Shown: positions 31,646 to 48,800 of the stretch, piece by piece
Position numbering within the stretch: position 1 is the stretch's first letter
Layout: each line of letters begins with the position of its first letter
Origin: an uncultured bacterium
Lineage (GTDB): Bacteria; SAR324; NAC60-12
Length of the DNA: 48,800 nucleotides
Assembly (NCBI GenBank): GCA_964010765.1
Contig: CAXGMD010000016.1
Span: 1 to 48,800 of the forward strand
Direction of reading: 5' to 3'
Position numbers and translations under genes: made by a program
The notes under the pieces: model-generated
Told to the model about the DNA's origin: nothing
Database searches by the model: none
What the model saw: the letters and a program-made list of their open reading frames with translations, nothing else

Positions 31646-31979
31646 TTTAATAAAAAACAAAGGTTTGGGAAAGCAAGCATAGTAATGAAAAGGTTTAAAT
31701 ATTTCGTGTTCTAAAGTACGAGTTTTCTGATCATTTTTTATTTTTTCAGTTAAGAAAAACGAATTTTAAATTCACTTTCAGGTAGGATAAATTCAATCAA
31801 TTCACATGATGAATTTGGAATGATTGAATACTATCTGCTAGGTTTATTTTTGAAAATCTTTTACAATCTCTAAAAAATTTGAAGCTTTTCAACTAATATA
31901 AATTTATCTGAGTTATCTTTTCTATATTTTTATTTCAAATCTTAGTGTTATTGTAGTAATTTAATCCACTTTAATTAAT

Positions 31980-33185: not shown

Positions 33186-34150
33186 AAAATATTTTCCCAA
33201 ACCAACTTTCCTCGCATGTTTGGTTTGTGGTACCAGCTGTTCTTTTAATGATATTACTACTAATTCTACCAGTTTTCGTGGCAGCTACATTTTCATTCAC
33301 GAATTACAACTTAGGAAGCCCAGACTTCGAATGGATTGGCACAAAAAATTATGAAGTTTTATTTAAGTATTCTAGTTATAAGAAAATGTTTACCGCTTCA
33401 TTTACTTACATTTTTGTTGTCGTACCTATTTCAATAATTTTAGGACTTTTTTCAGCAATACTTATTTCCTCACTACGCTTCGGTGGGGAAATTTATAAAA
33501 CCATATTTTTCCTGCCAGTGATGGCGACTTTATTAGCAATGGCAATTGTTTGGGATTTCACACTTGATCCAATTGTTGGAATCGTTAATCAGACTTTACA
33601 AAAAGGATGCAATACAAATTTTTTTTACAGTTTGATGACAGGATCTTGGCTTGGTTTTAATCCTGTAGATACGTGGTATGGGATTGCTTGCGCCGAAAGA
33701 ATGCCTAACTGGCTGGGAGATAAAAAATATGCATTAGGTACGATTGCCTTCATTGGGATTTGGCAGTCATTTGGATTCAACATGGTACTTTATCTTGCTG
33801 GTTTAACTGCGGTCCCAAGAACTTTGTATAAAGCAGCTGAGATTGATGGAGCAAGCGGTTCTTGGGAATCATTCAAGCTTGTAACTTGGCCATTGCTGGG
33901 GCCTACGCATGTTTTTGTTGTAACAATAACTTCTATACGCTCATTTCAAGTATTCGATACAGTGGAAGCGTTGACGCGGGGTGGGCCGAGCAAGTCAACA
34001 TATATGATGGTTTATGCAATGTTTGAGAAGGGAGTCAAACAAAATCTAATTGGCATTGGCTCAACTCTGACTGTTGTATTCTTATTCTTTGTTTTATTTC
34101 TGACCTTGATTCAAGTTTATTTTGTGAATCGCAAAGTACATTACTCATGA
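33182..34150 (+). CDS. CUT1 ABC permease (UgpA/MalF-like)
   Basis: EAA-loop variant LYKAAEIDGA, SFQVFD, LTRGGP; GTGA overlap with the ATPase. Confidence 0.92.
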   Translation: MKNIFPNQLSSHVWFVVPAVLLMILLLILPVFVAATFSFTNYNLGSPDFEWIGTKNYEVLFKYSSYKKMFTASFTYIFVVVPISIILGLFSAILISSLRFGGEIYKTIFFLPVMATLLAMAIVWDFTLDPIVGIVNQTLQKGCNTNFFYSLMTGSWLGFNPVDTWYGIACAERMPNWLGDKKYALGTIAFIGIWQSFGFNMVLYLAGLTAVPRTLYKAAEIDGASGSWESFKLVTWPLLGPTHVFVVTITSIRSFQVFDTVEALTRGGPSKSTYMMVYAMFEKGVKQNLIGIGSTLTVVFLFFVLFLTLIQVYFVNRKVHYS

Positions 34151-35037
34151 AAACTTCTGTTCATTCTGAAATCCTAAAACACGTTATTTTGCTTTCGGGA
34201 GCAGCTATTGTTATTCTTCCATTTTATCTGATGATTTCTTTTTCGCTTAAATCACCTGCTGAAATCCAAAGTATTTCAGGTGGCTTTTTTGGTGCTCAAG
34301 AAATGATGATCGATAGAAAGTGTGTAAAGCGAGGTTTCACCGAGGAAAAATGTTCAATGCTGCCAGTAGTTTATAATTTTAGAGCTGCTTTTGAAGAGGC
34401 TCCTTTATTACGTTATCTACTCAACGGCGTGATTGTAACTGTTTCTATTTTTCTCATCCAAATTTTAATTGCCCTTCCTTGTGCGTACGCTTTGGCAAAA
34501 TTAAAATTTTGGGGCCGTGATTTCGTTTTTGGTTTGGTACTTTTTTGTTTGCTCATACCCGTTCATGCGATTGCCCTTCCACTCTATCTCATGCTTGCCA
34601 AATTGGGACTAACGAATACATACGCAGCACTCGTCATCCCATGGACGATATCCGTATTTGGGATTTTTTTAATGCGTCAGTTTTTCAAAACTGTACCAGA
34701 TGATCTGATCAACGCGGCAAGAATGGATGGTATGAGTGAATTCAACATAGTTTGGCAGGTTATGCTTCCCACGGCAATTCCAGCATTACTCGCTTTTGCA
34801 ATTTTTTCTGTGGTAGCGCATTGGAATGACTACTACTGGCCAAGAATCGTTATTACAGGCGACAAAGACTTGATGACTCCACCGTTGGGCTTGCGTATGT
34901 TCAAATCAGACATGGATGGCAATGAATATGGGCCAATGATGGCTGCTTCGTTAGTCATCGTTACACCCTTAGTAGTTGCATTTCTACTCGCTCAACGTCG
35001 ATTTATTGAAGGAATTACCCTCACGGGTATGAAGTAG
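34147..35037 (+). CDS. CUT1 ABC permease (UgpE/MalG-like)
   Basis: LMRQFF, LINAARMDG, HWNDYYWP, AQRRFIEG. Confidence 0.92.
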   Translation: MKTSVHSEILKHVILLSGAAIVILPFYLMISFSLKSPAEIQSISGGFFGAQEMMIDRKCVKRGFTEEKCSMLPVVYNFRAAFEEAPLLRYLLNGVIVTVSIFLIQILIALPCAYALAKLKFWGRDFVFGLVLFCLLIPVHAIALPLYLMLAKLGLTNTYAALVIPWTISVFGIFLMRQFFKTVPDDLINAARMDGMSEFNIVWQVMLPTAIPALLAFAIFSVVAHWNDYYWPRIVITGDKDLMTPPLGLRMFKSDMDGNEYGPMMAASLVIVTPLVVAFLLAQRRFIEGITLTGMK

Positions 35038-35141
35038 CAATAACTTTGTTGGAAAAGATTTTTTTCAGAGTTATTGCTTAGAAAGCTCATTGCCGCCCCA
35101 GCATGACCTTTCAAATATTTTGGGGATTCTACAGGAGATCC

Positions 35142-36389
35142 ATGCAACTGAAATCACTAATTACCGGTGCTTTGACCACATGTATGTTGCTGTCTGCATC
35201 TATGGCTAGTGCTGTAACTATTGAAGTGGGTTACGCATATTCTTCACTTTTTGACGTAACCTTTAAAAAGATATATCCTTTATTTCGAGAAGCCAATCCT
35301 GACATCGAAGTAAAATTTAGAGCCACTTACGACAATTACGAAGACGGTGCAAACACTATTCTTCGTGAAGCGGTTGCTAACAAACTGCCGGATGTGACTT
35401 TCCAAGGTCTGAATAGACAGTCTATGTTTGTTGAAAAGGGTATTGCTAAATCACTTGAGCCCTTCATTGCCAAAGAAGCCAATTTCGAAAAAGATGGCTA
35501 TCACAAGGCAATGTTGGATTTGGGTACTTTCAACGGTGAAGTATATGGTTTACCATTTTCTGTTTCCTTGCCCGTGGGCTACTACAACATGGATGCTTTG
35601 GGTAAAGCAGGAATTACTTCGCTTCCAACTACTTGGGATGAGGTAATCGAAAACTGCAACAAGTTGAGAGCGTCTGGCTTTGATAATCCACTTTTTTGGG
35701 GTTGGAATATTACTGGTAACTGGTTCTTCCAAGCTTTGATGTGGAGCCAGGGAGAACCAATACTTAAAGATGGCAAAGTCAATTTTGATGGACCAGCTGG
35801 ACTCAGAGCTCTTGAGACGATGAAAACACTGTTCAGAAGCTGCAAGATGGAGAATCTCCCTTTTACAGATGCAGGCAAACCATTTAATGCTGGTAAAGTA
35901 GCTATGCACTTTTGGTCTACTTCTGCAGTCGGAGCAATCGAACGGGCAAAGGGCGATTTTGAGTTGCAAACTGGTGAGTTTCCAGGTATCGGCGGTCCTC
36001 CTGCTGGGTTACCCGCTGGAGGAAACTCTGTGATGCTAGTCTCAGGTTCATCAGATCCTGAGAGAATCGAAGCAGCTTGGAAATTCATCAAATTTTGTAC
36101 TTCCGGTGAAGGCGCAGCTGTTGTTGCTGAGACAACTGGCTACATGCCTCCAAATAAAGCTGCAAATGAAATGCTAGGCGATTTCTACAAGGCAAATCCA
36201 AACAAATATACTGCTGTGAAACAAGCTGGGCTTCTTCGTGAGTGGATAGCTTATCCTGGAGACAACAGCCTTGCAATTACGCAGCTACTCTTCGATGGAC
36301 AAGAGTCTATTGTTACTGGAGACGCTGATGACATGAAAGCGCTTCAAGAGGAGTTGGCAGAGGAAGTCTCAGATATGCTGCCAAACTGA
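35142..36389 (+). CDS. CUT1 ABC substrate-binding protein (UgpB-like)
   Basis: ATG 35142 with AGGAG, signal peptide (ASA-V). YGLPFSVSLPVGYYN, PAGGNS, AAWKFIKF, TGYMP. Confidence 0.9.
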   Translation: MQLKSLITGALTTCMLLSASMASAVTIEVGYAYSSLFDVTFKKIYPLFREANPDIEVKFRATYDNYEDGANTILREAVANKLPDVTFQGLNRQSMFVEKGIAKSLEPFIAKEANFEKDGYHKAMLDLGTFNGEVYGLPFSVSLPVGYYNMDALGKAGITSLPTTWDEVIENCNKLRASGFDNPLFWGWNITGNWFFQALMWSQGEPILKDGKVNFDGPAGLRALETMKTLFRSCKMENLPFTDAGKPFNAGKVAMHFWSTSAVGAIERAKGDFELQTGEFPGIGGPPAGLPAGGNSVMLVSGSSDPERIEAAWKFIKFCTSGEGAAVVAETTGYMPPNKAANEMLGDFYKANPNKYTAVKQAGLLREWIAYPGDNSLAITQLLFDGQESIVTGDADDMKALQEELAEEVSDMLPN

Positions 36390-36538: not shown

Positions 36539-37618
36539 ATGAAAATTAAAACAACAACAATTGGTGCTTTTCCAAAGCCCTCTTGCACACCAATTGGCGA
36601 TTGGTTTCCGAAAATAGATGATTCCGATGCTAAAGGTGCTGGCAAGGGCCTCCTACAAAGATGGAATATATCTGATTATGAGCAACAAATAAAGACTGCC
36701 GCCGATTCTGCAGAACCGCTGTTCCTGCAAGCAATTGAAGAAATTATTCTTGATCAAATACAATCTGGTGTGGACATACCCACTGATGGCGAAGTGAGAA
36801 GGGAGAACTACATCTATTACCAGTGTCGTCAAATCGACGGCATTGACTTCCAAACCATTACCCGTAAACAAGTAAGGTCTGGTGCTTTTGAAGCAAAACT
36901 ACCAACTATCACTGGCCCATTGCAACTCCGTAAAGCAGTTTTAGGAACTGATTACAGTTCTGCAAAGCAATTTACATCTAATCCTGTGAAGATAACTATT
37001 CCAGGTCCGATGACGATTGCCGATTCGATCGCCGACGAGTTCTACAATGATGAAAAAAAACTATGTAATGATTTAAGTAATGTCCTAAATCAGGAGATTC
37101 TCTTGTTAGCCAAAGCCGGCTGTAATCACATTCAAGTTGACGAACCTGTGTTTGCGAGGAAACCTGATAAGGCACTAAGTTATGGTATTGAGAGCCTTGA
37201 GCGCTGTTTTGCCGGTGTGCCAAAAGAGATTTGTAGGACAGTACACGCTTGCTGTGGTTATCCCAATGCTTTGGACAGTGAAAACTACCTGAAAGCCCCT
37301 CCTGAATCCTATTTTCATCTAGCCCCTGCCATTGATGACTCTTCAATCAATGCTTTTTCGATTGAAGATGCTCATCGACCTAACAATTTGAAGCTACTAG
37401 AACTTTTCAAAAATACTACCATTATTATGGGTTTGGTTGATGTTGCGAAAAGTAGTGTCGAAGAGGTCGAGCAAATTCAGGAGAGAATACGGCATTCACT
37501 ACATCACATAGACCGGGAGCGCCTAGTTGCAGCTCCTGACTGTGGCCTAGGGCTATTGGATCGGAATCTAGCCAAATCTAAACTGAAGAATCTCTGCACA
37601 GCAGCGCGGAATAGCTAG
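36539..37618 (+). CDS. Single-domain cobalamin-independent methionine synthase II family protein (MetE C-terminal-like)
   Basis: TTTIGAFPKP, TDGEVRR, PGPMT, IQVDEP; Zn ligands HACCG, SIE, APDCGLG. 359 aa, no N-terminal MetE half. Confidence 0.9.
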   Translation: MKIKTTTIGAFPKPSCTPIGDWFPKIDDSDAKGAGKGLLQRWNISDYEQQIKTAADSAEPLFLQAIEEIILDQIQSGVDIPTDGEVRRENYIYYQCRQIDGIDFQTITRKQVRSGAFEAKLPTITGPLQLRKAVLGTDYSSAKQFTSNPVKITIPGPMTIADSIADEFYNDEKKLCNDLSNVLNQEILLLAKAGCNHIQVDEPVFARKPDKALSYGIESLERCFAGVPKEICRTVHACCGYPNALDSENYLKAPPESYFHLAPAIDDSSINAFSIEDAHRPNNLKLLELFKNTTIIMGLVDVAKSSVEEVEQIQERIRHSLHHIDRERLVAAPDCGLGLLDRNLAKSKLKNLCTAARNS

Positions 37619-37660
37619 CAGAGACTCGAATTTCAATTGAATTACGTTCAAACCAGTTTC

Positions 37661-38212
37661 TCAACTCTCACCGTTTCTCTCTTCATTAAACGCCATCACC
37701 TCACAACGTCCGTAACTCTGCGTAGGGACAACTGCACCGTCTTTAGTGATTGTGTGCTGTGATGTTGTGGCGACAAAAGTTCCTGCTTCCCGGTTTTCTC
37801 GCATCACCATCACCGCAGTCGTATGGATAGGTCGCTCTGGATTGACTTCCAGAAAATTTAGCGCTTCCAAGGTACGGATAATAAAGACTTCCTGGATTCC
37901 ACTTGGTTCGCCTGGAACTCTCTTGATCAGCCGAGCCTTGCTTCCTTTTTGCGGAATGGCTGCAAAGATATACTCCATGTTTTCGATGGTGGCTTCTTTC
38001 GACCAAGTTGTTTCCCAGGAAGTCCAGTTGGTAGTCACCTGTCGAGTGAACAAACAACGTAGACTTTTGGCCTTCAAAAGATTTGCATCACGAACAAACA
38101 AAGCCTCTTCTGCGGCATGTAGTGGACTGGTGAAGAGGATGATGAGTAGGGCCAACAATCCAAAAATCATGGGTCGACTCTGGCAATGGGTTCCAAAAAT
38201 TTTCTTCTCCAA
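37661..38212 (-). CDS. Exported hypothetical protein
   Basis: Hydrophobic signal ending LHA-A (start may be ATG 38170). Beta-rich mature part with Cys near each end. Confidence 0.7.
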   Translation of the reverse strand: MEKKIFGTHCQSRPMIFGLLALLIILFTSPLHAAEEALFVRDANLLKAKSLRCLFTRQVTTNWTSWETTWSKEATIENMEYIFAAIPQKGSKARLIKRVPGEPSGIQEVFIIRTLEALNFLEVNPERPIHTTAVMVMRENREAGTFVATTSQHTITKDGAVVPTQSYGRCEVMAFNEERNGES

Positions 38213-38554
38213 AATCGTTGTTCTGAAGAGGGTTGATTTGATTTATCTTCAACACAACTGCAGGTTTTCTTCCTTCTGGACGAATTCATCTATTTTCTGA
38301 GGTTTTCCTCTACTCGGCTCCGTTTCTCGTCTTTTCTGATTGAACCAATATCATCACGAAAGTGGGAGATGGCTGGATTCTTGTTTCAGTTACTAGTAGA
38401 AAATCTGTCACATTAATTTTTAGAACTAAATTTTCTTAAACTGAGTCATTGAAGGGCATTGTTTCACAACAGATTCGACTCACTGAATTTGTGAGTTAAT
38501 AAAACTCTGATCCTTCAAGCAGAAGAATCTCTCTTTATTCCGAAAAGGTGGACG

Positions 38555-38875
38555 ATGAATCAGCTATTCCCCCCAAAAGTTATGGACCGCAGAAAGAGTG
38601 ATCGCAGGGCGAATGAACGTCGGTCCGATGAAAGAAGGCACCATGACCGAAGATCTGGCTCAGGAGAGGTACCCCGAGAACGCCGTCAAAGAGAGGAACT
38701 GGTGGAGTTGACAGACCGGCGCCTAACAGACCGGCGTAATCAGGATCGGCGGGAACACGATCGAAGAAAAATCAATTTGTTGCTGAACACGGAAGCACAA
38801 CAACTCTTGGCAAAGACACCCTGGATGGAAGAACTTCTTGTGAAGATTGCCGAGGATCAAAAAAGTTCTACCTAA
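38555..38875 (+). CDS. Small protein with tandem (D/E)RRxx repeats
   Basis: ATG with AAAGGTGG upstream. DRRKSDRRANERRSDERRHHDRR and DRRLTDRRNQDRREHDRR, then a helical tail. Confidence 0.8.
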   Translation: MNQLFPPKVMDRRKSDRRANERRSDERRHHDRRSGSGEVPRERRQREELVELTDRRLTDRRNQDRREHDRRKINLLLNTEAQQLLAKTPWMEELLVKIAEDQKSST

Positions 38876-38927
38876 GATCAAAATCAGCCCACCCAAGTGT
38901 CCTAATCACCAAGAAGCACCTCTCCTC

Positions 38928-40247
38928 TCAGAGGTACTTTTCACGTATCGGAGAAACTGCGTTCTCGTGGGAGGAAAACCCCTCATAGTGGGCCAGAACC
39001 TTAGCTCTTTTGGCAAGTTCTGGATAAGCTGGAGGAGTAACATATCCTATCGAACTTCGCTTCATAAAGTCGTGAACAGAAAGCGGTCCAAAGGTTTTGG
39101 CACCCTGACTTGTTGGCAACACAGCGTTGGGGCCGAGTGAGAAATTACCAATGCAGACTGGAGTATGAGGCCCCATTAAAATTTCTGCTGCCTCTGTAAT
39201 GTGGCCCAAGTGTGTGAATGGCTCTGTGGAAAGCAGTTCCAAGTGTTCTGGAGCATAGTCATTTATGAATCGGTAGCTTTCCTCGACCGATGATGTCAGC
39301 AAAATTCCACCATAGGGACCTGTCAGCACAGTTTTAGAAAACTCTACCCGCTGTGCAGTCATCTTCGCCCAGTGATCAGGCAAAGCAGCCAGAGCCTCTT
39401 CCACCACACGGCGAGAGTGTGTGACTAAGTAAGCTGAGCTATCTGGTCCATGTTCTGCTTCAATCAGCAGATCTAGCGCAGCGAGTCCACCATGAACACT
39501 ATCGTCAGCAAATATAATTGCTTCGGACGGCCCAGCCGGCAAGCCAGGATCAATAATATCAGATAGCAATCGTTTAGCTGCCACGACCCAAGGACTACCT
39601 GGACCAACAATCTTAAGTGCTCGTTCAATAGTCTCAGTACCAAATGTAGCAGCAGCTACAGCTTGCGCACCTCCACACTTGTAGACAGTATCGACACCCG
39701 CAATACTTGCTGCTACAAGAGTTGCTGAATCCACAGATCCATTCGGTAATGGAGGGGTGAAAATCGCCAACTTTGGAACCTGAGCTACTACGCCCGGTAT
39801 TGCAGTCATCATCGTCACTGATGGAAAAGCACCCTTCCCACGCGGCACATAGATCGCGACAGAGCGAATTGGAGTTAGTCGATCTCCAGCATAAGCGCCC
39901 GGTCGAATCTCCTTCATCCACATAGTTTCTGGCTTCTGCTCCTCATGGAAGGTTCTGATATTGGTGATACCATAGCGAATCGCCTCAATGACTACCTCTT
40001 CGACTTCTTCAAACGCAGCAGCGAACTCCGCTTCACTTACCTTCAGAGCTTCCTTACTCAGCAGCGTAGAGCCATCTAATTGCTGGCCAAAACGAACTAG
40101 CGCTTCATCTCCTTCTAAACGCACCGCCTCGATGATAGGCTTCACCTTCTCCACAAAGCTTGAGAGATCAGCCTCTGAACGCTTTAGCAAAGCTTTATAA
40201 TCTGCGGCTGTCAGCTTACTAGTTTCGTGAAAGGATACCGTTGACAT
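38928..40247 (-). CDS. Histidinol dehydrogenase paralog with a divergent active site
   Basis: YVPRG, GGAQAVAA, KIVGPG, PAGPSE, AEHGPDS, APEHL are HisD-family motifs. It has DLLIEAEH and IGNF where canonical HisD has DLLSQAEH and AGDY. Confidence 0.9.
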   Translation of the reverse strand: MSTVSFHETSKLTAADYKALLKRSEADLSSFVEKVKPIIEAVRLEGDEALVRFGQQLDGSTLLSKEALKVSEAEFAAAFEEVEEVVIEAIRYGITNIRTFHEEQKPETMWMKEIRPGAYAGDRLTPIRSVAIYVPRGKGAFPSVTMMTAIPGVVAQVPKLAIFTPPLPNGSVDSATLVAASIAGVDTVYKCGGAQAVAAATFGTETIERALKIVGPGSPWVVAAKRLLSDIIDPGLPAGPSEAIIFADDSVHGGLAALDLLIEAEHGPDSSAYLVTHSRRVVEEALAALPDHWAKMTAQRVEFSKTVLTGPYGGILLTSSVEESYRFINDYAPEHLELLSTEPFTHLGHITEAAEILMGPHTPVCIGNFSLGPNAVLPTSQGAKTFGPLSVHDFMKRSSIGYVTPPAYPELAKRAKVLAHYEGFSSHENAVSPIREKYL

Positions 40248-40282
40248 GATGCAGTGCCTTTTTGAGTAAGTTTTGGTGACAG

Positions 40283-41083
40283 TCACTTCGATTTAAGAAA
40301 GATTTCTAAACCAACTATTTTGTCCAGTATGGCAATAGCCAACATCGCTACTGCAATAAAAACAACCGAGACAGCCGCTAGGTCTGGTGTAATAATCGAA
40401 CGGATAGAATTGTAGACTTGTACGGGGAGCGTGACAATTCGAGCATCTACAAGCAATAGGCTAACGAGAAATTCGTTCAGGGATAGAATGAACATCAGCA
40501 GAGAGCCTGTGATGATTCCCGGCATTACTGACGGCAAGGTCACATAGAAAAAAGTTTGAACCGGACCAGCACCGCAACTTTGGGCAGCAAGTTCCAGATC
40601 AGGATCTAGGCCTGTAGCACTTGAGGAAACTGCCCAAATCATGAAAGGGAGATTGATCACAGCGGTAGCTACGCCAACCGGCCAAAGGCTCCCAAGAATA
40701 CCGACTTCACCAAAGACCAACATCAATCCGATTCCCGATCCAATCAGTGGGATTGTGAAAGGTAACAGGAGATAGGTCTGAATCAAAGCACCCTTGCGTA
40801 ATCGATACTTTACTAGGGCAATCCCCGCCAAGGTCCCCGCAGGCAAAGAGATAAGCACACAAATTATGGCCACCCAGATTGAACGTATAAATGCATCCTG
40901 CAATTCCTGCTTTTCCACGAGAGCTTTGTACCACTTCAAGGACAACCCATCCGGAGGGAAAACAATAATATTTCCAGAAGTCAGGGAAGCTCCAAGCACA
41001 ACAAGTGTTGGTGCAGAGAGAGTAATGATCGAGATAACGATTAGTATCCAGAAAAATAGTTTCTGGGCAACTGGCTGGTTCAT
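40283..41083 (-). CDS. ABC permease (PotC-like)
   Basis: FPPDGLSLKWY, LELAAQSCGA EAA loop, FILSLNEF, TLPV. Confidence 0.92.
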   Translation of the reverse strand: MNQPVAQKLFFWILIVISIITLSAPTLVVLGASLTSGNIIVFPPDGLSLKWYKALVEKQELQDAFIRSIWVAIICVLISLPAGTLAGIALVKYRLRKGALIQTYLLLPFTIPLIGSGIGLMLVFGEVGILGSLWPVGVATAVINLPFMIWAVSSSATGLDPDLELAAQSCGAGPVQTFFYVTLPSVMPGIITGSLLMFILSLNEFLVSLLLVDARIVTLPVQVYNSIRSIITPDLAAVSVVFIAVAMLAIAILDKIVGLEIFLKSK

Positions 41084-42024
41084 TTATCTTTTGCGCCCAA
41101 GGCTAGTGTCCCTGCACCAACCAACATAAAAATAATCCAAACTAAGAGTGAACCAATTGCAATCAATAACACGGCCAGACTGGAACCAAATCCCTGATCG
41201 GACGTCCGGAAAAACTGGTCATAGATTGCGTTCGCCACAAAATCCTGAGTTCCACCACCAAGAATAGCTGGCATCGCAAAATCTGTCAGAGAGAGAGTCA
41301 AGACCACCAAACCCGCACCGATTAGACCGGACTTAGCCATGGGAAGTATCACATAAAGCATTGTTTCCTGCCAGGAAGCCCCAAGAGATTCAGCAGCAGC
41401 TTCAATTTCTTCAGGAATTGCGGTTAGTGCTGGAGCCAACATCAATACGGCAAATGGAAACATGTACTGTACAAGCCCAAACAGAACCGAAGGATAGTTG
41501 AAAAGCATGCGTAGTGGTTCAATACCAATCAACCCCAGTATATCGTTCACTATCCCTTGTTTGCCCAGAATAATAAGCCATCCATAAGCGCGTACTACTT
41601 GTCCAATGAAAAAAGGCAAAAATAGAGCAATTAGCAAGAATTTTCGTAGAAATGCACTACGCGTTCTTACCATAATGTAGGTATAGGGGAAGGCCAGTAG
41701 CAATGTAGTCATGGTAACGATAGTTGCACCAAGAATACTTCGCCAAATGACAGATCGAATGAATGGCTCTGTCAGTGCGCGCTCGTAGTTTGCCAGTGAC
41801 CACTCCTCCGAGAAAAGGAAGGTGCTCGTGTCAAGAGTTCTTAAAGAAGTGTCACCAATATAAGCAAGTCCTAGAACAAGCAGACCAACTAACAAAATTG
41901 CAGGACTCAACATTAGATAAGGCCCCCAGAAGCCTCCTTTTTTGGGCCAAATTTTACTGAAAGCAGCTTCTAGGATATCCATCAAGTGCCAAGTCAACGG
42001 ATAGCAAGATAGATTACGTCTCAT
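41080..42024 (-). CDS. ABC permease (PotB-like)
   Basis: VVRAYGWLIILG..G, IEAAAESLGA, PAILGGG. Confidence 0.92.
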   Translation of the reverse strand: MRRNLSCYPLTWHLMDILEAAFSKIWPKKGGFWGPYLMLSPAILLVGLLVLGLAYIGDTSLRTLDTSTFLFSEEWSLANYERALTEPFIRSVIWRSILGATIVTMTTLLLAFPYTYIMVRTRSAFLRKFLLIALFLPFFIGQVVRAYGWLIILGKQGIVNDILGLIGIEPLRMLFNYPSVLFGLVQYMFPFAVLMLAPALTAIPEEIEAAAESLGASWQETMLYVILPMAKSGLIGAGLVVLTLSLTDFAMPAILGGGTQDFVANAIYDQFFRTSDQGFGSSLAVLLIAIGSLLVWIIFMLVGAGTLALGAKDK

Positions 42025-42047
42025 TAGTTTTCGATCGATCTATGAGA

Positions 42048-42078
42048 CCACTGGAACTTCAAACCTAAAGCCCAGTGG
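42048..42078 (-). other. Intra-operon stem-loop downstream of the SBP gene
   Basis: CCACTGG...CCAGTGG inverted repeat with extra wobble pairing on the minus strand. This is the typical position of an SBP mRNA stabiliser. Confidence 0.45.
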
Positions 42079-42093
42079 CTAAACTTTTCAGAA

Positions 42094-43194
42094 TCACCCC
42101 TGCATAATCGCCTTGAACTTCGAGAACCACTCGCTCTCGTTTTCTACCTGGATCTTGCCTGAGATACGGATCAGCCGATCAAAGTCAGCCGGTTTAGTTG
42201 GATAGGAAGGATCTCCAGCTAATCCTGGTGGCGGTCGCAATCCAGGGATGACTCCGGGCAATCCTAAACCATCCAGCCAAATCTGCTGAGATTCCTTACT
42301 TAGAGCGTGGTTGATGTATTCTCTGGACCAGTACAAATCTCCTTCAGAGTGCCCTTTAGGAATCCACAGCCCATCTGTATCAAACTTGGCGCCCTCCTTT
42401 GGAATCGTCCAAGCGATATCTACTCCATTTCTTTTGGCTCCTAGTGCGTTTGTTGAAATCGTACATGCTGCGTCAATTTCTCCATTCTGGAACCACGTCA
42501 CAAAATCAGGATCTTCTCCAAGTAATGGTTCTTGAGTTTTGATTTTAGACACAAAATCCCAGCAGGGTTGCATATTATTTGGGATACCATCTAATTTACC
42601 ACCGCCAGCGACCTGTGCTGGAAAGTGGAATCCAATCCCATCGTTGTAAAACGCTAGTCGTCCCTTAAATTTAGGGTCAAGCAGATCGTGATAGGATGCT
42701 GGTGGTCCACTTGGAAAGGCACTCGGCCGGTATGCTAACACATACACATACCCGTAAGTATTGACGATCGGATAGCCATCTACGCCCACAGGCTTTGCCA
42801 AGTCAGTGGTTCCTTTCAGATTGGGTAGGTCGGAAAGATCCTCACACACTCCACGAAGTGCCGACTTAGTAGCATTGGTCGTTGTGTCCCAATTGATATG
42901 GATTGGGGGAGTTCGCTTTTGAGCAACAGCAGCCCAAACCTTTGGTTGTATTTCATTATCCTCAGTCAAATCATGTCGTACTTTAATACCTGTCTTGGTC
43001 GTAAATGGATCTGAAACTCCAGCCTTCAGTGCTTCGACCCAAGGACCACCCCAAGCTCGGACAATAATCTCTGTTGGCTTGGCAGGTTCCGCTTTCAGTA
43101 AAGATGGTGCTACAGACCCAGCTGCACCAGCAATTCCCAGCATGGCTGAGGTCTTCAGTAAATCTCTCCGTTTGATCTGCTTGTCGAAAGTCAT
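42094..43194 (-). CDS. PotD/PotF-family ABC substrate-binding protein with Tat signal
   Basis: ATG 43194 with AGGAG. KRRDLLK twin-arginine leader; WGGPW, DLLDPKFKGR, PKEGA, YINHALS. Confidence 0.88.
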   Translation of the reverse strand: MTFDKQIKRRDLLKTSAMLGIAGAAGSVAPSLLKAEPAKPTEIIVRAWGGPWVEALKAGVSDPFTTKTGIKVRHDLTEDNEIQPKVWAAVAQKRTPPIHINWDTTTNATKSALRGVCEDLSDLPNLKGTTDLAKPVGVDGYPIVNTYGYVYVLAYRPSAFPSGPPASYHDLLDPKFKGRLAFYNDGIGFHFPAQVAGGGKLDGIPNNMQPCWDFVSKIKTQEPLLGEDPDFVTWFQNGEIDAACTISTNALGAKRNGVDIAWTIPKEGAKFDTDGLWIPKGHSEGDLYWSREYINHALSKESQQIWLDGLGLPGVIPGLRPPPGLAGDPSYPTKPADFDRLIRISGKIQVENESEWFSKFKAIMQG

Positions 43195-43239
43195 ACTCAA
43201 CTCCTGATTCTGGTTAAGACTCGGCTGTTGCCAAGTTAA

Positions 43240-44346
43240 TCAATCCACGACAAAGACATGCATGTCGCGGCTCTGCCATCCAACAAAGACCATCTCTCCT
43301 ACTTCGAATGTTGAGAAGTCTTGCTGGTCATGGTGAATGATCCTGATGGGCGCATCAGATAACGCTGCCACCGAAAGTTCATAGAGAATCCGTTCTCCCT
43401 CAAAAATAACATCCGTTACTCGACCCTCAAAATAAGCCTCACATTCTCTGTTTTCTGATTTTCCACGAAACAGTCGAATCTGTTCTGCACGGATAGCAGC
43501 CTGCACTGAAACTCCCTGGGTCAGCGCAGAGTTCTCACTCTTTGAAGTACCAAGCAGTGTCTGCTGACTGATTCTGATTGCTACCTGCTGTCCCTTTAGA
43601 GACTCCAGCATCCCATGGAATAGGTTAGTTACCCCTACAAAATTAGCTACAAAAGGATTTGATGGAGAACGGTAAACTTCCAAGGGGGTAGCATTCTGCT
43701 GGATTTCTCCATAATTCATCACAATGATCTGATCAGAAACCACCAGTGCTTCTCGCTGATCATGGGTAACATTTATCGTGGTGACACCGAGTTCCTTCTG
43801 AATTCTCCGAAACTCTAATTGCATTTCTTCACGTAACTTGCGATCCAAGGCCGCTAGTGGTTCGTCCAAAAGGAGTAAGTCTGGTTCAAAAACCAAGGCT
43901 CGAGCAATCGCCACACGCTGCTGCTGCCCTCCTGAAAGTTCATTGATCTTACGACTACCAAGCCCCTCCAAACGCACAAGGTGCAAGTATTCTTTCACCC
44001 GGTCAGAGATCGTACGGGCGTTAAACCTGCGCATTTTCAACGGAAACGCTACATTTTCCGCTGCGGTCATGTGTGGGAATAAAGCAAGGCGTTGGAATAC
44101 CATCCCAATCGAGCGTTTGTTGGGAGCTAATTCCCTAACAGTTTGTCCCTTGATAAAAATTTCGCCCTGATCTGGTTGCTGAAAACCGGCGATCAGCCTG
44201 AGTAAAGTTGTTTTTCCAGAGCCCGAGGGGCCCAAAACTGTGAGAAAACGGCCCTCCTCCAGTTCAAAACAGACGTTCTTAACGGCATGTACATCACCAA
44301 ACTGTAAACAGACGTTTGAAGCAGAAACTGCAGAAACTTTATTCAA
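43240..44346 (-). CDS. ABC ATP-binding protein (PotA-like)
   Basis: GPSGSGKTT, ALFPHMT, LSGGQQQRVAIARAL, DEPLAALD, VTHDQ. Confidence 0.93.
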   Translation of the reverse strand: MNKVSAVSASNVCLQFGDVHAVKNVCFELEEGRFLTVLGPSGSGKTTLLRLIAGFQQPDQGEIFIKGQTVRELAPNKRSIGMVFQRLALFPHMTAAENVAFPLKMRRFNARTISDRVKEYLHLVRLEGLGSRKINELSGGQQQRVAIARALVFEPDLLLLDEPLAALDRKLREEMQLEFRRIQKELGVTTINVTHDQREALVVSDQIIVMNYGEIQQNATPLEVYRSPSNPFVANFVGVTNLFHGMLESLKGQQVAIRISQQTLLGTSKSENSALTQGVSVQAAIRAEQIRLFRGKSENRECEAYFEGRVTDVIFEGERILYELSVAALSDAPIRIIHHDQQDFSTFEVGEMVFVGWQSRDMHVFVVD

Positions 44347-44421
44347 AGTAAGAAATTTGGGCTAGAGTCATTCACTGGCAGTTCAATCCAAGATGTTGTT
44401 GTAGGACAATGGAGACAGCCT

Positions 44422-45192
44422 TCAAATGGACGCGAGATAGCCTCCATCGATTGCCAAACATTGGCCGGTGATATACTTTGCGGCATCACTAACAAGGAAG
44501 ACAACCGCACCTTTAAGGTCGTTTGCATTGCCAAAGCTATTCAGCGGGATTTTCTGCAGCATAGCTTCTTGCCAAGCCTGTTCACGATAAAAGGCCTCCG
44601 TCAACTCCGTCCTGAAGTAACCTGGCGCAATCGCATTGACTCGAATTTGCTCACTTGCCCATTCTGTTGAGAGCGCACGTGTCATGCCCAATAGTCCCGA
44701 CTTGGAGGAACCGTAAGGCACTGCCGTTGGCACACCAACATATGATGTCAGGGAACATACATTAACAATGGCACCACCTCTGCTGGAACGTACCATACTG
44801 TGAGCAGCAACTTGGGCAGCAAAAAAGGCTCCCTTGAGATTAGTTTCCATGATAGTGTCCCAGGTTTCCTCAGTCAGTTCATAGGAGGGACACACTTGTT
44901 CGTAGCCTGCATTATTGACGAGGATGTCTATTTCTCCAGCCTGCTGAGCAACTGTCTGAAGTCTATTCCTCATTGCGGGTACGTCACGAACATCTAACTC
45001 TATTTGTCGGGACTCGCCTCCGAAATCGGAGATCCGAGATTGTGTTTCCTCAAGTGCTTTCAAAGAACGGGAGGTGATTACTACTGTTGCACCCGCCTCC
45101 GCTAAGCCAATTGCGATTGCCTGGCCAAGTCCTCGACTAGCTCCCGTAACAATTGCATTTTTTCCTGATAGGTCAATGGTGAAACCTTTCAC
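44422..45192 (-). CDS. SDR oxidoreductase (KduD/gluconate-5-dehydrogenase-like)
   Basis: TGASRGLG, NNAG, YGSSKSG, RVNAIAPGYF, DGGYLA. Confidence 0.9.
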   Translation of the reverse strand: MKGFTIDLSGKNAIVTGASRGLGQAIAIGLAEAGATVVITSRSLKALEETQSRISDFGGESRQIELDVRDVPAMRNRLQTVAQQAGEIDILVNNAGYEQVCPSYELTEETWDTIMETNLKGAFFAAQVAAHSMVRSSRGGAIVNVCSLTSYVGVPTAVPYGSSKSGLLGMTRALSTEWASEQIRVNAIAPGYFRTELTEAFYREQAWQEAMLQKIPLNSFGNANDLKGAVVFLVSDAAKYITGQCLAIDGGYLASI

Positions 45193-45273
45193 TTGAAAGT
45201 CTCCTTACAGAAAAACAATCAAATAGATAAGCATGTCTTTAACAATAAAAATCTCTGAACAAAATAGATTCCA

Positions 45274-46386
45274 ATGAAACCACTTGAAAAGATTTTGCGC
45301 CCCGAACTCATGGAAATACCCCCATACAACGTGGGGCTTGGGCTGAACGAGGTAAAATCACGTTATGGAGTAACTGCAGTTGCAAAACTGTCCTCAAATG
45401 AGAATCCAACTGGCCCAGCACCACAGGTTTTAGAGTGTCTCTCCCAAACTAGTTCGGAACTGTATCTTTATCCCGACAGTGAGGCTCTTTTGCTGCGCAA
45501 GGCAATTGCTCGACGCTTAAATGTCTCTGAAAAGCGAATAATTTTTGGCAACGGTTCAGAAGAATTAATTTCGATTATCTGTCGAAGTGTTGTCAATCCA
45601 GGCGATCGAGTTGTTACTCTCTATCCTTCCTTCCCACTGCATGAAGATTATACCAAGTTGATGGGAGGTTCTGTCGAAAGACTGGCGATAAATGACAAAC
45701 TCCGGATTGATCTAACCAAACTTATCGAGAGGGCTGCACAACCAGCCAAATTACTCATTTTTGCCAATCCGATGAACCCTAGTGGAAGTTGGCTAAACCC
45801 TGAACAACTGAGACAATTGTTTGCAGCCAAGCATCCAGAGACTATGCTCGTGCTTGACGAAGCTTATCACGAATACGCAGTTCATGGAAACTACACCAGT
45901 GGTCTCGACCTCACGGAACTGATGCCAGGACATTGGGTAGTACTTAGAACATTTTCTAAGAGTTGGGGGCTTGCGGGGCTCCGAATCGGCTTTGGCATAT
46001 GTAGTTCAACAGAACTTTGCCAAGCACTGGACCGAACGCGTACTCCCTTCAATACCAATCAATTGGCCCAGATAGCTGCGAAAGCCGCCTTGGATCACGA
46101 GGATTACATGCTCCACAGTGTTCAACAAACAATCCTACAACGCGAGCGTCTTGCTAAAGAACTCCGATCTCGTGGTTACCAAGTCGGAGAATCTCTCGGG
46201 AATTTCCTATTCATCAATATCAATCACTCTTCAATAAAATTTGCAGAAGAACTCCTTAAACTAGGTACAATTGTTAAGCCCTGGCTTCAGCCGGGTTATG
46301 ACACTTTCCTTCGTGTGTCGATTGGCACACCAGTAGAAAATGAAAAATTTCTGGTGGATCTGGATCAGATAGAGGCTTTTCGATAA
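45274..46386 (+). CDS. hisC: Histidinol-phosphate aminotransferase (HisC)-family PLP enzyme
   Basis: KLSSNENP, YPD, GNGSEE, NPMNPSG, DEAY, RTFSKSWGLAGLRIG, RVSIG. Confidence 0.85.
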   Translation: MKPLEKILRPELMEIPPYNVGLGLNEVKSRYGVTAVAKLSSNENPTGPAPQVLECLSQTSSELYLYPDSEALLLRKAIARRLNVSEKRIIFGNGSEELISIICRSVVNPGDRVVTLYPSFPLHEDYTKLMGGSVERLAINDKLRIDLTKLIERAAQPAKLLIFANPMNPSGSWLNPEQLRQLFAAKHPETMLVLDEAYHEYAVHGNYTSGLDLTELMPGHWVVLRTFSKSWGLAGLRIGFGICSSTELCQALDRTRTPFNTNQLAQIAAKAALDHEDYMLHSVQQTILQRERLAKELRSRGYQVGESLGNFLFININHSSIKFAEELLKLGTIVKPWLQPGYDTFLRVSIGTPVENEKFLVDLDQIEAFR

Positions 46387-46476
46387 AGAGATTGGCTCAG
46401 AAACTTTGTGAATCCATTTTTTTCAAGATATTTGCAAAAACTTCCAGCTTAACCATACTTTTTCAGTTATGCCTTT

Positions 46477-47625
46477 TTATTTTTGACGAACGTAGCGATC
46501 CCCAAACTGCTTTAGCTCATCAACACTAGGCACACCCATCAACTTCATTGTGATTGAAATTTCTTTGGCAAATATCTCAATTGCTTTTTCAACACCCGAC
46601 CTTCCGTCTGCAGCAAGTCCAAACGCATAAGCTCGACCCAACAGCACTCCACTAGCGCCCAAGGCTAGAGCAATTACCACCTCGGAACCACGGCGGAATC
46701 CACCATCAATCATCACACAATAATCTTTGCCAACTGCCTTACGAATTTCTGGCAAGATGGAGATCGTCGAATTGGCAAAATCTAATTGTCGGCCACCATG
46801 ATTCGATACAACAATAGCATCTGCTCCGTGATCTATGGCCTTAATTGCATCATCTGAATTAAGTATACCTTTCATCACCAGTCGTTTTTTCCAAACCTTG
46901 CGGAGCCACTTCATATCCTCCCAGATAATTGAAGAATCAAGCCTACCAGAAAGATTGGACGCCTGCTCTAGGATGCCTTTACCAAATTCAGGGTAGTTGG
47001 CCAACGCCTCTACACTTGGAATTCCGGATTGCCACATATCCCAGCACCAAAGTGGGCGCTGCATCATTGAAAATATTAGTGTTGGGTTGAGGCGCCTAAC
47101 CGCCCGAAATCCATTACGGACATCTCTTTCACGTACAGACGTTACTGCGGTATCAGCTGTGTAAAATAGAGTCTCAACTTTTGCATCTACAGCTGATTCC
47201 ACTAACTTTTCGACAAAAGATCGCTGGCAATCCATGTAGAGTTGGAATTGGAGTGTGCCCCCAACCTCCCTCTGCAGAGTCCCTAAACTTGCAATAGAAA
47301 AGGTTGAAAGACACAAAGGAATACCTTTTTCCTTGGCGGCTTCTGCGCAAAGAATTTCTCCCCGACCACGATAAAGTCCTAGGAAGCCAACCGGTCCGAG
47401 CATGATAGGAAGTGTGTGCCTAGTTCCAAGAAACTCACAACTCAAGTCTGGCATACCCTTTAATGCTAAAACTCTCTGAATTAGGCACCAATTGTCAAAA
47501 TCCTCATGATTACGCAGTGCCGTAGTGTCTGAAAACGCAGCCCCATCAATGTAGTCAAAAAATATTTTGGGTAATCGACGCTTTGCGTGCTTTCTCAGAT
47601 CTTCGACATTCACAATTGTTGTCAA
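46477..47625 (-). CDS. FMN-dependent alpha-hydroxy acid dehydrogenase/oxidase (LldD/mandelate dehydrogenase family)
   Basis: FFDYIDG, FQLY, RERD, KGIL, SNHGGRQLD, DGGFRRG, LGRAY. AGGAG upstream of the TTG start. Confidence 0.92.
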   Translation of the reverse strand: MTTIVNVEDLRKHAKRRLPKIFFDYIDGAAFSDTTALRNHEDFDNWCLIQRVLALKGMPDLSCEFLGTRHTLPIMLGPVGFLGLYRGRGEILCAEAAKEKGIPLCLSTFSIASLGTLQREVGGTLQFQLYMDCQRSFVEKLVESAVDAKVETLFYTADTAVTSVRERDVRNGFRAVRRLNPTLIFSMMQRPLWCWDMWQSGIPSVEALANYPEFGKGILEQASNLSGRLDSSIIWEDMKWLRKVWKKRLVMKGILNSDDAIKAIDHGADAIVVSNHGGRQLDFANSTISILPEIRKAVGKDYCVMIDGGFRRGSEVVIALALGASGVLLGRAYAFGLAADGRSGVEKAIEIFAKEISITMKLMGVPSVDELKQFGDRYVRQK

Positions 47626-47734
47626 CTTATTCTCCTTTTACAGTTAATAAAATCGTTAATATCTGCTGGATAATCTGATGCTAGGATGAAAAATTTGGTA
47701 AGCTACTAAGTAAATAAAAATGGTAGAAATGATG

Positions 47735-47764
47735 TTGACAATCAAGAAAGTAAGTCACCATGAT
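47735..47764 (+). promoter_or_regulatory. Candidate sigma70 promoter for the cytochrome genes
   Basis: TTGACA at 47735, 18-nt spacer, CATGAT at 47759. Confidence 0.3.
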
Positions 47765-47950
47765 TTTTTTAGGCTGCAAAAAAACTCCACAGAGAGTCCT
47801 TGATTTATTGTCAGTTACGATCACCATTATTGGGTAGGTTGTATCCCTTGAATCACAACGAGGTATTCAGACACATTGAAGTTAGAATCTCTGCAGGGCT
47901 CCGTTGCCCATCACCAAATGCCTTTTTAAACCAACTCTAATCGAGTCACC

Positions 47951-48406
47951 ATGTTTCAACCCAAGCACCTATTGATTGCAATTATACTTGGAGGGCTTTT
48001 CATCCCCTCTGTTTCCTGGGCAGATAACACGGATGATATCATCAAATATCGGAAGGCAGTCTATACCTCTATGCGGGGACACATTGGAGCAATCTCCAGA
48101 ATTGTCCGTGCTGGACTTGGAGACTACAAAGGACACATTACAGATCACGCAGTCGCAATCCAGAATGCAGCGAAGATTGTCCCCTCAATGTTTCCAGAAG
48201 GATCTGACTTTGGTGATACTGGGGCCTTGGAGAGCATCTGGACAGATCAAAAGGGCTTTGAAAAAGCCTCCCAGCGCCTAGTAGATGCTAGTGGAGAACT
48301 GGTGACTGTTTCCCAATCCGGAGACATGAAAGCCATCGGTAAAGCTGTTGGTGCTGTTGGAGGAGCTTGCAAAAACTGCCACGACAACTACCGCGCCTCC
48401 AATTGA
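47951..48406 (+). CDS. Class II cytochrome c (cytochrome c'/c556)
   Basis: Signal peptide, helical sequence, FPEGS, IW, C-terminal CKNCH...YR. Confidence 0.92.
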   Translation: MFQPKHLLIAIILGGLFIPSVSWADNTDDIIKYRKAVYTSMRGHIGAISRIVRAGLGDYKGHITDHAVAIQNAAKIVPSMFPEGSDFGDTGALESIWTDQKGFEKASQRLVDASGELVTVSQSGDMKAIGKAVGAVGGACKNCHDNYRASN

Positions 48407-48800
48407 AGTACCGGCAGTGTGGCCTTTCCCTACTGATTTGCATTTTAATTTCTGTCAGTGCTGAGGCCCGTACTCCCAACCCGATTGCCGGAGAGCAGAT
48501 TTTTCATGCAGCTGGTGGTTGTGGCTGTCACACTGATGTGGAGAATAAAGGCTCGCTTCTAGCTGGAGGGCGCCCACTTCCTACACCTTATGGAGTCTTC
48601 TATGCCAACAACATCACTCCAGATCCAACCACGGGGATCGGTTCTTGGAGTGATGAAGACTTCGTTCGTGCTATGCGGGAGGGGATAGGGCCAGAGGAGC
48701 AGCATTACTTCCCAAGCTTTCCTTATCCTGCATTCGCCAAGATGAGCGAAGAGGATCTATTGCATCTCAAAGACTATCTCTTCAGCCTGCCTCCCATCCA
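48403..48800 (+). CDS. c-type cytochrome (diheme/gluconate-dehydrogenase cytochrome-like), 3' truncated by window edge; absent from the ORF track
   Basis: TTG 48403 overlaps the upstream TGA. Translation MKYRQCGLSLLICILISVSAEA-RTPNPIAGEQIFHAAGGCGCHTD...LAGGRPLPTPYGVFYANNITPDPTTGIGSWSDEDFVRAMREG...YFPSFPY. Confidence 0.88.
   Translation, partial: MKYRQCGLSLLICILISVSAEARTPNPIAGEQIFHAAGGCGCHTDVENKGSLLAGGRPLPTPYGVFYANNITPDPTTGIGSWSDEDFVRAMREGIGPEEQHYFPSFPYPAFAKMSEEDLLHLKDYLFSLPPI

Follow-up and report, generated by a model that had tools for sequence, protein, structure and literature searches.

What do homologs of the histidine-biosynthesis genes hisD and hisC do in the company of a solute importer? 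The question is raised by a 48,800-nucleotide stretch of DNA from an uncultured bacterium of the SAR324 phylum (contig CAXGMD010000016.1 of assembly GCA_964010765.1; this whole stretch is called the window here), in which eight genes at 38928-47625 encode a HisD-like dehydrogenase, an ATP-binding cassette (ABC) importer of the Pot type, a short-chain dehydrogenase/reductase (SDR), a HisC-like aminotransferase and a flavin mononucleotide (FMN)-dependent alpha-hydroxy-acid dehydrogenase. The original prediction for this locus, made from the sequence and its open reading frames (ORFs), saw in it an uptake-and-conversion module for an imidazole or amine compound. Our analysis reveals that the eight genes are one acquired 8.9-kb island whose hisD- and hisC-like genes are, judged by sequence comparison, extra paralogs and not housekeeping copies, and with roughly even confidence we read the island as an import-and-funnel module that would carry an imidazolyl three-carbon alcohol and/or hydroxy acid to L-histidine.

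ORF listing and family scans of the window placed every gene where the original prediction had put it. Six genes form a run on the minus strand, with gaps of -4, -4, 69, 39 and 75 bases that are compatible with one operon: the HisD-like gene (38928-40286; PF00815, 429.4 bits over profile positions 2-408 of 411), genes for a PotC-like permease (40283-41083; PF00528, BPD_transp_1; 109.8 bits against a cut-off of 326 on the PotC model NF007047) and a PotB-like permease (41080-42024; also PF00528; 129.2 against 348 on the PotB model NF007044), a periplasmic solute-binding protein of the PotD/PotF fold family (42094-43200; SBP_bac_8, PF13416, 138 bits; 18.5 against 582 on the PotD model), a PotA-like ATPase with a TOBE domain (43240-44346; PF00005 and PF08402; 351.4 against 355.6 on the subfamily model TIGR01187) and the SDR (44422-45192; PF13561, 205 bits). 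The plus-strand HisC-like gene (45274-46386; class I/II aminotransferase family PF00155) diverges from the SDR gene across an intergenic region of exactly the predicted 81 bp (45193-45273), and the FMN dehydrogenase gene (46477-47625, minus strand; FMN_dh, PF01070, 380 bits) converges on it with a gap of 90 bp. Since relatives of the HisD-like protein begin at residue 14 of the window protein in our alignment, the real start probably lies at 40247. Pfam scans of 41 window ORFs detected no further his genes, which bears out another point of the original prediction, and the island holds no regulator gene. This arrangement is not a product of chance, because the same genes recur together in other genomes.

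Could these simply be the cell's own hisD and hisC, lying by accident beside a transporter? Both proteins pass the corresponding NCBI models (403.5 bits against a cut-off of 243.8 on TIGR00069; 287.6 against 276.55 on TIGR01141), and public records call their relatives 'histidinol dehydrogenase'. However, the source genome (92% complete) contains three TIGR00069 matches, and a better HisD lies elsewhere: the copy at C1:57599-58891 reaches 509 bits on TIGR00069, with 379 bits to HisD structures that have been solved, while the copy at C20:30924-32201 has as its best solved match HpsN, the dehydrogenase of 2,3-dihydroxypropane-1-sulfonate (DHPS), at 405 bits. The window HisC-like protein is the genome's best TIGR01141 match, and a second homolog, cut by a contig end, is located at C174:3267-4115 (profile positions 60-341, 214 bits). 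Of the nine genomes in the genus of the window, five (G000, which is the source genome, G050, G051, G054 and G055) carry the window-type HisC-like gene at 85-100% identity, always on the same contig as the HisD-like gene, and seven, the source genome included, have another HisC homolog that is 30-33% identical; G052 (67% complete) has no HisC match, and the sole match of G057 is 26% identical. The separate copies, together with sister genomes that are free of the island, refute the housekeeping reading, against which two altered zinc ligands also speak (both described below) and to which we assign next to no probability. The prediction that these are paralogs, for which a search for separate hisD and hisC had been proposed, thus stands: a true HisD, an HpsN-like protein and a partial second HisC homolog are all encoded outside the window.

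Related genomes show the extent of the unit. Of 88 genomes from the SAR324 phylum, only six, all among the nine of the window's genus, have a HisD-like gene of the window type (identity of at least 92%); the other three of the genus lack a match of this type, and all other HisD-like matches in the phylum are at most 56% identical. In G056, of the same genus and 88% complete, contig C186 presents the empty site: 189 bp separate the equivalent of window 37678-38903 from that of 47790-48800. A contig from RNA-library run X1 carries an empty-site junction joining 38883 to 47790, and loose contig ends at 38883 in runs X2 and X3 resemble the G056 spacer. The inserted or deleted segment therefore spans about 38904-47789 and holds exactly the eight genes, so that the HisC-like and FMN dehydrogenase genes are tied to the operon. 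No integrase or transposase family was found among the eight. The window HisD-like protein is 80% identical to marine alphaproteobacterial sequences and groups in a FastTree phylogeny with those of loci L018 and L020 inside a seven-row alphaproteobacterial clade, a topology that suggests a marine alphaproteobacterial donor. The island nature of the locus had not been noticed in the original prediction.

If the HisD-like protein is not the biosynthetic enzyme, what kind of HisD is it? Its best solved match is a HisD (247 bits), with HpsN at 164-170 bits, yet the HisD motifs SQAEHD, GDY..GPNH.LPT and GG.A.YPS are replaced by IEAEHG, IGNFSLGPNAVLPT and RGKGAFPS. An alignment of the window protein, six relatives from Alphaproteobacteria and the two other paralogs of its genome was read against published structures and the 8v35 alignment. 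The zinc of HisD is held by Gln, His, Asp and a His of the second subunit (Gln299, His302, Asp401 and His460 in MtHDH), and catalysis depends on a Glu-His pair (Glu367-His368) (PMC5585171). In the window protein the catalytic pair is intact (APEHLE), as are both His ligands, that of the QAEH motif and that of the second subunit, and the Glu with which plant HisD hydrogen-bonds the imidazole of its substrate (PMC5585171). In contrast, the axial ligand Gln is changed to Glu (IEAEHG) and the equatorial ligand Asp to Asn (IGNF...); the residue that follows this Asn is Phe, where HisD has Tyr and CpHpsN has Lys353 (Asp352-Lys353 becoming Asn-Phe); the His of the GPNH motif is Ala; and the position of HpsN His126 is occupied by Phe (R-G-K-G-A-F), where most HisD proteins have Leu.

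These substitutions are not peculiar to one protein. A search of 1.84 billion representative sequences returned 11,078 HisD-family members at E <= 0.001; from the best 150, the 119 with 400-480 residues were combined with the nine aligned rows, and removal of six that lacked the catalytic Glu-His pair left 122. Glu/Asn occupies the two ligand positions in 28 of these rows and Gln/Asp in 90, with four odd cases, and both changes are common to all seven aligned clade members. On a FastTree phylogeny of the 122 rows, with local support values and with the trait's own columns kept in the alignment, a single change separates the Glu/Asn from the Gln/Asp state. The solved-structure search found no structure within the Glu/Asn branch, and literature searches on HisD-like enzymes and on the locus tags and gene names of Sinorhizobium meliloti (S. 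meliloti) returned no functional assignment for it. On these sequence criteria the window HisD-like protein, a presumed four-electron dehydrogenase, belongs to a distinct subfamily, here called E-N, with no characterised member found. The altered metal site had also escaped the original prediction.

The relationship to HpsN raises the possibility that the island is a variant of the HpsO/HpsP/HpsN sulfonate system, importing DHPS or cysteinolate and leading through sulfolactate and sulfopyruvate to cysteate. HpsN is itself a HisD-family enzyme and works with the SDR HpsO and the zinc dehydrogenase HpsP (PMC11382572; PMC11131964); the HpsN of Bilophila oxidises L-cysteinolate to cysteate (PMC12814064); a hydroxy-acid dehydrogenase and an aminotransferase could convert sulfolactate to cysteate; SAR324 bacteria are marine, and such sulfonates are described as abundant in the sea; and the alternative importer found in Mesorhizobium relatives is SsuA/TauA-like. 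However, the motif that defines HpsN, G-R-Y-A/S-H with the sulfonate-binding His126, and Lys353, which lies beside the Asp ligand and also binds the sulfonate (PMC11382572), correspond to G-K-G-A-F and Phe in the window protein, which moreover is nearer to HisD than to HpsN. The genome already has the HpsN-like gene on C20, it contains no Xsc above cut-off, and the linkage to HutC and hut genes described below would be left unexplained. We regard the sulfonate reading as very improbable and set it aside on the missing HpsN-specific residues, the lesser likeness to HpsN than to HisD and the lack of an Xsc above cut-off in the genome.

The HpsN-like protein on C20 keeps the Asp-Lys pair but has Met at the His126 position (G-K-Y-P-M against G-R-Y-A-H), and the translations of its surroundings (C20:24443-38695, partly covered by locus L002) read as a LacI-type regulator, an amidohydrolase-like gene and two sugar-type ABC importers. 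Because of this sugar-type importer setting and the Met, it may not be a DHPS dehydrogenase either.

What the E-N enzyme works with can be judged from its neighbours in other genomes. One genome per species was scanned, yielding 422 relatives, and the best 80 loci were kept (4 from SAR324 and 76 from Alphaproteobacteria, many of them Mesorhizobium); tblastn and clustering of ORFs identified the partners. The SDR accompanies the HisD-like gene most constantly (75 of 80 loci, the five without it being cut by contig ends), followed by a zinc alcohol dehydrogenase directly downstream (73), a GntR/UTRA regulator of the HutC-like type (59), an SsuA/TauA-type ABC system (45), an APH-like protein of about 430 residues (40), the Pot-type ABC system (29), the HisC-like gene (26) and the FMN dehydrogenase (8). 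The window has the SDR but no zinc dehydrogenase, whereas its relatives carry both, a trio resembling HpsO, HpsP and HpsN that the original prediction had not noted. Its proposal that the neighbourhood would prove conserved is upheld by these loci and by plasmid records, of which 111 contain HisD-like relatives (S. meliloti, Rhizobium, Shinella and others). Two plasmids of gammaproteobacteria, Klebsiella michiganensis NZ_CP029140.1 (HisD-like protein 61% identical) and Pantoea sp. At-9b NC_014839.1 (57%), each combine the gene with those for an APH-like protein, a zinc dehydrogenase, an SDR and an SsuA-type importer, and the Klebsiella plasmid adds an alpha-hydroxy-acid oxidase; a site-specific integrase gene lies a few kb from the Klebsiella cluster. 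The orthologue on pSymA of S. meliloti 1021 is 72.9% identical, and the locus of S. meliloti ml56 shows the full gene set. As the importer family swaps while the enzymes stay, it can be argued that the enzymes define the pathway.

The individual partners narrow the chemistry to some extent. The best solved relative of the SDR is 4j2h, an SDR without a functional name (322 bits), and with 154 bits to HpsO it is no closer to that enzyme than to FabG-type enzymes. The FMN enzyme, with lactate oxidase (262 bits) and (S)-mandelate dehydrogenase (260 bits) as its best solved relatives and 288.5 bits against a cut-off of 550 on the LldD model NF033901, is by these scores mandelate/lactate dehydrogenase-like and not LldD proper; in loci L016, L017, L018, L038 and L067 the HisD-like gene has an orthologue of it (56-70% identity) downstream. 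The APH-like protein of the relatives contains the motif HGDAHNAN; Pfam gave no match for it at 1e-5, and its best hits among solved structures (E = 0.29) and in NCBIfam (E = 0.076) are not meaningful. A protein atlas names its neighbours phosphotransferase or APH-like, a lead by which it is a putative kinase. As to the importer, orthology to Pot is not borne out, every subunit falling below its NCBIfam cut-off and the binding protein reaching only 18.5 bits where the PotD model asks for 582. The solved relatives of the binding protein (PotD, PotF and opine binders) are distant, at E = 1e-8 to 1e-2 (1e-8 to 1e-5 for the best of them), and for this protein the atlas yielded generic names only. 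The N-terminus of the binding protein, an RRDLLK motif followed by a hydrophobic stretch in the alignment, looks like a twin-arginine export signal.

A direct pointer to the metabolic setting comes from the regulators and the hut genes. On the HutC equivalog TIGR02018, all the regulators scanned, those of L018, L020, L025, L056, G040 and S. meliloti ml56, score above the cut-off (237-287 bits against 220), and within 10 kb of the HisD-like gene hutH is found in 14 of the 80 loci, hutI in 13 and hutF in 4. The hutH-linked loci belong to IMCC20636-like Rhizobiales, Stappiaceae, a Rhodobacterales metagenome-assembled genome (MAG), eight Pleomorphomonas, Rhizobium alvei and a Hyphomicrobiales MAG, and the hut proteins of L018 lie above their equivalog cut-offs. 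By our own estimate this frequency is far above chance, since about 20 kb of a genome of about 5 Mb amounts to 0.4%. The clearest example is G040, another genome of the SAR324 phylum, which has the cluster embedded in a hut operon, with HisD-like protein, binding protein and SDR 51, 60 and 54% identical to those of the window. One strand reads hutH, APH-like gene, potA, binding protein, potB, potC and a restriction-modification pair, and continues with the HisD-like gene, a GldA-like iron alcohol dehydrogenase, an FMN dehydrogenase, the SDR, hutC, hutG and hutF. Its FMN dehydrogenase is only 29% identical to that of the window and was therefore separately recruited, and a tryptophan-dehydrogenase-like amino-acid dehydrogenase, of the aromatic type, lies nearby. 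The restriction-modification pair (locus L100, G040:C746, 11073-12844) consists of an EcoRV-type restriction endonuclease and a D12-class adenine methyltransferase, set between potC and the HisD-like gene. Expression data point the same way: a tolC mutant of S. meliloti 1021 shows SMa0387 (hisC3), SMa0391-0396, SMa0398 (hisD2) and the GntR gene SMa0402 down 8- to 23-fold, alongside hutU, hutG, hutH and ntrBC/nitrogen-assimilation genes (PMC2912261). The imidazole or histidine link first suspected from the paralogs has thereby gained independent support.

How would such a module operate? The substrate class and every reaction that follows are predictions, built on observed features: the genes present, their paralogy, the signature of the subfamily, the recurrence of the genes together, their linkage to hut and HutC, and the boundaries of the island. 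The Pot-type ABC system would import a small polar compound with the carbon skeleton of histidine. The HisD-like enzyme would oxidise its terminal CH2OH to COOH in two NAD-dependent steps, giving histidine from histidinol or imidazolyl-lactate from imidazolyl-propane-1,2-diol. The FMN dehydrogenase would convert imidazolyl-lactate to imidazolyl-pyruvate, and the HisC-like aminotransferase would convert the latter to histidine, a step in which the amino-acid dehydrogenase may substitute in G040. The SDR may act on the secondary hydroxyl, either taking the other enantiomer or producing the hydroxy-ketone, as HpsO does for DHPS, and the zinc or GldA-like dehydrogenase of the relatives may act there as well, as HpsP does for DHPS. 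This route, from diol or histidinol through the lactate and the pyruvate to histidine, is the one that uses most of the island's genes. It agrees with the second of the two examples given in the original prediction (imidazole-lactate via imidazole-pyruvate to histidine), whereas the first, histamine to a carbonyl by HisC and on to an acid by HisD, fits the enzyme families poorly. The alphaproteobacterial version would be fuller, adding a zinc alcohol dehydrogenase, the putative APH-like kinase and a HutC-type repressor, with histidine passing to the Hut pathway; where the kinase is present, an alternative course could run from the diol to imidazole-acetol, its phosphate, histidinol phosphate (by the HisC-like enzyme), histidinol and histidine (by the HisD-like enzyme). 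In the SAR324 genus histidine would serve the cell as a salvaged amino acid or source of nitrogen and would not be degraded, since no Hut pathway was found there: none of the nine genus genomes has hutH above cut-off, the match in G057 reaching 445 bits against 539.

Several observations weigh against a funnel to histidine. The metal site is unlike that of HisD (Gln to Glu, Asp to Asn, His to Ala), and two Phe residues line the pocket, so the substrate may not be histidinol itself, nor necessarily an imidazole. No biochemical datum was found for any member of the E-N subfamily, and we know of no report of imidazolyl-propanediol as an abundant natural product. The trio of SDR, zinc dehydrogenase and HisD-like protein mirrors HpsO/HpsP/HpsN, which acts on a non-imidazole diol, and a PotD/F-type binding protein suggests a cationic or zwitterionic ligand over an anionic hydroxy acid. 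The APH-like protein, part of the core elsewhere, would have no role in the lactate route and is absent from the window. Most loci (66 of 80) lack hutH within 10 kb; the Klebsiella plasmid region has no annotated hut gene or regulator; and the Pantoea regulator is PdhR/LldR-like, not HutC, again with no annotated hut gene.

An alternative is a module that degrades a non-imidazole diol or amino alcohol, be it an aromatic, aliphatic or cationic 1,2-diol or 2-amino-1-ol, through the same sequence of alcohol, 2-hydroxy acid, 2-oxo acid and amino acid, the hut linkage then reflecting shared nitrogen regulation or chance. The pocket is hydrophobic, with Phe at the His126 and Lys353 positions of HpsN and Ala for His; the HisC-like protein scores best on NF003496 (490.1 bits, below the cut-off of 540) and also matches 4r2n, a putative phenylalanine aminotransferase (152 bits); the FMN enzyme is nearest to mandelate dehydrogenase; and both the tryptophan-dehydrogenase-like gene near the G040 cluster and the two gammaproteobacterial plasmids without annotated hut genes, with the non-HutC regulator of Pantoea, accord with such a substrate. 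The S. meliloti cluster, moreover, falls together with many nitrogen-related genes and not with hut alone (PMC2912261). However, shared regulation or chance must then account for HutC-equivalog regulators inside the cluster in nearly three-quarters of the loci, for hutH linkage in several genera and arrangements, and for a G040 cluster placed between hutH and hutC/hutG/hutF on one strand. We therefore consider a non-imidazole substrate rather unlikely.

If the funnel to histidine is taken as the working model, a broader proposal follows, which we advance tentatively and with less than even confidence: the E-N branch of HisD, in which carboxylate and amide have changed places among the metal ligands, may be a large unrecognised subfamily anchoring a widespread 'pre-Hut' funnel that would turn an environmental imidazole alcohol into histidine and nitrogen, spanning rhizobial megaplasmids, Enterobacterales plasmids and open-ocean SAR324, with histidinol, imidazolyl-propanediol, imidazole-glycerol and imidazole-acetol as candidate substrates. 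If true, it would suggest that seawater and the rhizosphere contain a pool, so far unmeasured, of metabolites resembling those of the histidine pathway, and it would assign genes to the old imidazolyl-lactate route discussed below. An imidazole substrate would also mean a new entry into histidine utilization and, in an abundant marine lineage, a new nitrogen and amino-acid salvage trait acquired as a single island. Other consequences concern annotation and enzymology. Pipelines name these genes 'histidinol dehydrogenase' and 'histidinol-phosphate transaminase', and metabolic models of hundreds of genomes therefore probably assign them a wrong role; a third HisD branch, its metal site rearranged, offers enzymology a clear target.

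Some features of the island and its surroundings complete the description. One imperfect inverted repeat (45260-45297) lies in the divergent region between the SDR and HisC-like genes, and a scan of 37500-48000 showed no enrichment of promoter-like sites (12 against 13.3 expected) or terminator-like sites (2 against 9.8 expected). Seventeen runs recorded as RNA contain at least half of the sampled words, and contigs from four runs cover the stretch; as strand, starts and a single transcript are not readable from such contigs and DNA is possibly present, we draw no claim on expression or operon structure from them. The 1.2 kb to the left of the island (37678-38903) is 91-95% identical in G054, G055 and G056, and the ORFs there (106 residues at 38555-38875; 183 and 184 residues at 37661-38300) have no Pfam or NCBIfam match. 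Farther left, a short MetE-like catalytic-domain protein is encoded at 36539-37618, after a Ugp-like ABC importer (32043-36389); homology to the three genomes ends at about 37678, so that the MetE-like gene is not a neighbour of the locus in them. Still farther left, the minus strand has three genes in a row that we presume to resemble a 2-aminoethylphosphonate degradation cluster of the phnY/phnA/phnW type: 27807-29246 encodes an aldehyde dehydrogenase, 29261-30502 a protein of the type I phosphodiesterase family and 30521-31660 a class V aminotransferase.

How, then, does the island compare with known systems? HpsO/HpsP/HpsN of Cupriavidus pinatubonensis and Roseobacteraceae shares with it a HisD-family four-electron alcohol-to-acid dehydrogenase clustered with an SDR and a solute importer, as well as the zinc alcohol dehydrogenase of most window relatives and a downstream course from hydroxy acid to oxo acid to amino acid. 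It differs in that the window HisD-like protein, with Gln changed to Glu and Asp to Asn, lacks the sulfonate-binding His126 and Lys353, that no sulfo-lyase gene is seen in the module or in annotated related loci, and that the relatives are linked to HutC and hut. Histidine biosynthesis uses the same two families in its last steps, and of the biosynthetic enzyme the HisD-like protein retains the Glu-His pair of catalysis, the His from the second subunit and the Glu that contacts the imidazole; the window genes, in contrast, are extra copies on an acquired island beside an importer, an SDR and an FMN dehydrogenase, with no other his gene. To our knowledge, the HisD family has two proven activities, the oxidation of histidinol and that of DHPS or cysteinolate. 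The proposed chemistry of hydroxy-acid dehydrogenase and aminotransferase feeding Hut also has a precedent, reportedly described by Coote and Hassall in the Biochemical Journal around 1969-1973: in Pseudomonas and Comamonas, imidazolyl-lactate is said to pass through imidazolyl-pyruvate and histidine to urocanate, with an NADP-dependent dehydrogenase. We know of no genes assigned to that route. An orthologous cluster in a tractable organism is SMa0387 (hisC3) to SMa0402, including hisD2 (SMa0398), on pSymA of S. meliloti 1021, for which the papers found gave no functional assignment and whose transporter is termed 'of unknown function' in the expression study (PMC2912261). In S. meliloti ml56 the HisC-like gene, SDR, ATPase, PotD/F binding protein, permease and hisD follow in the same order as in the window, whereas the rhizobial version adds a zinc dehydrogenase, hutC, the APH-like gene and an alpha-hydroxy-acid oxidase in the same run. 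These comparisons portray the island as a HisD-family catabolic module like HpsO/HpsP/HpsN, built on another subfamily and probably serving histidine metabolism, and the orthologous cluster of S. meliloti 1021 makes the question open to genetics.

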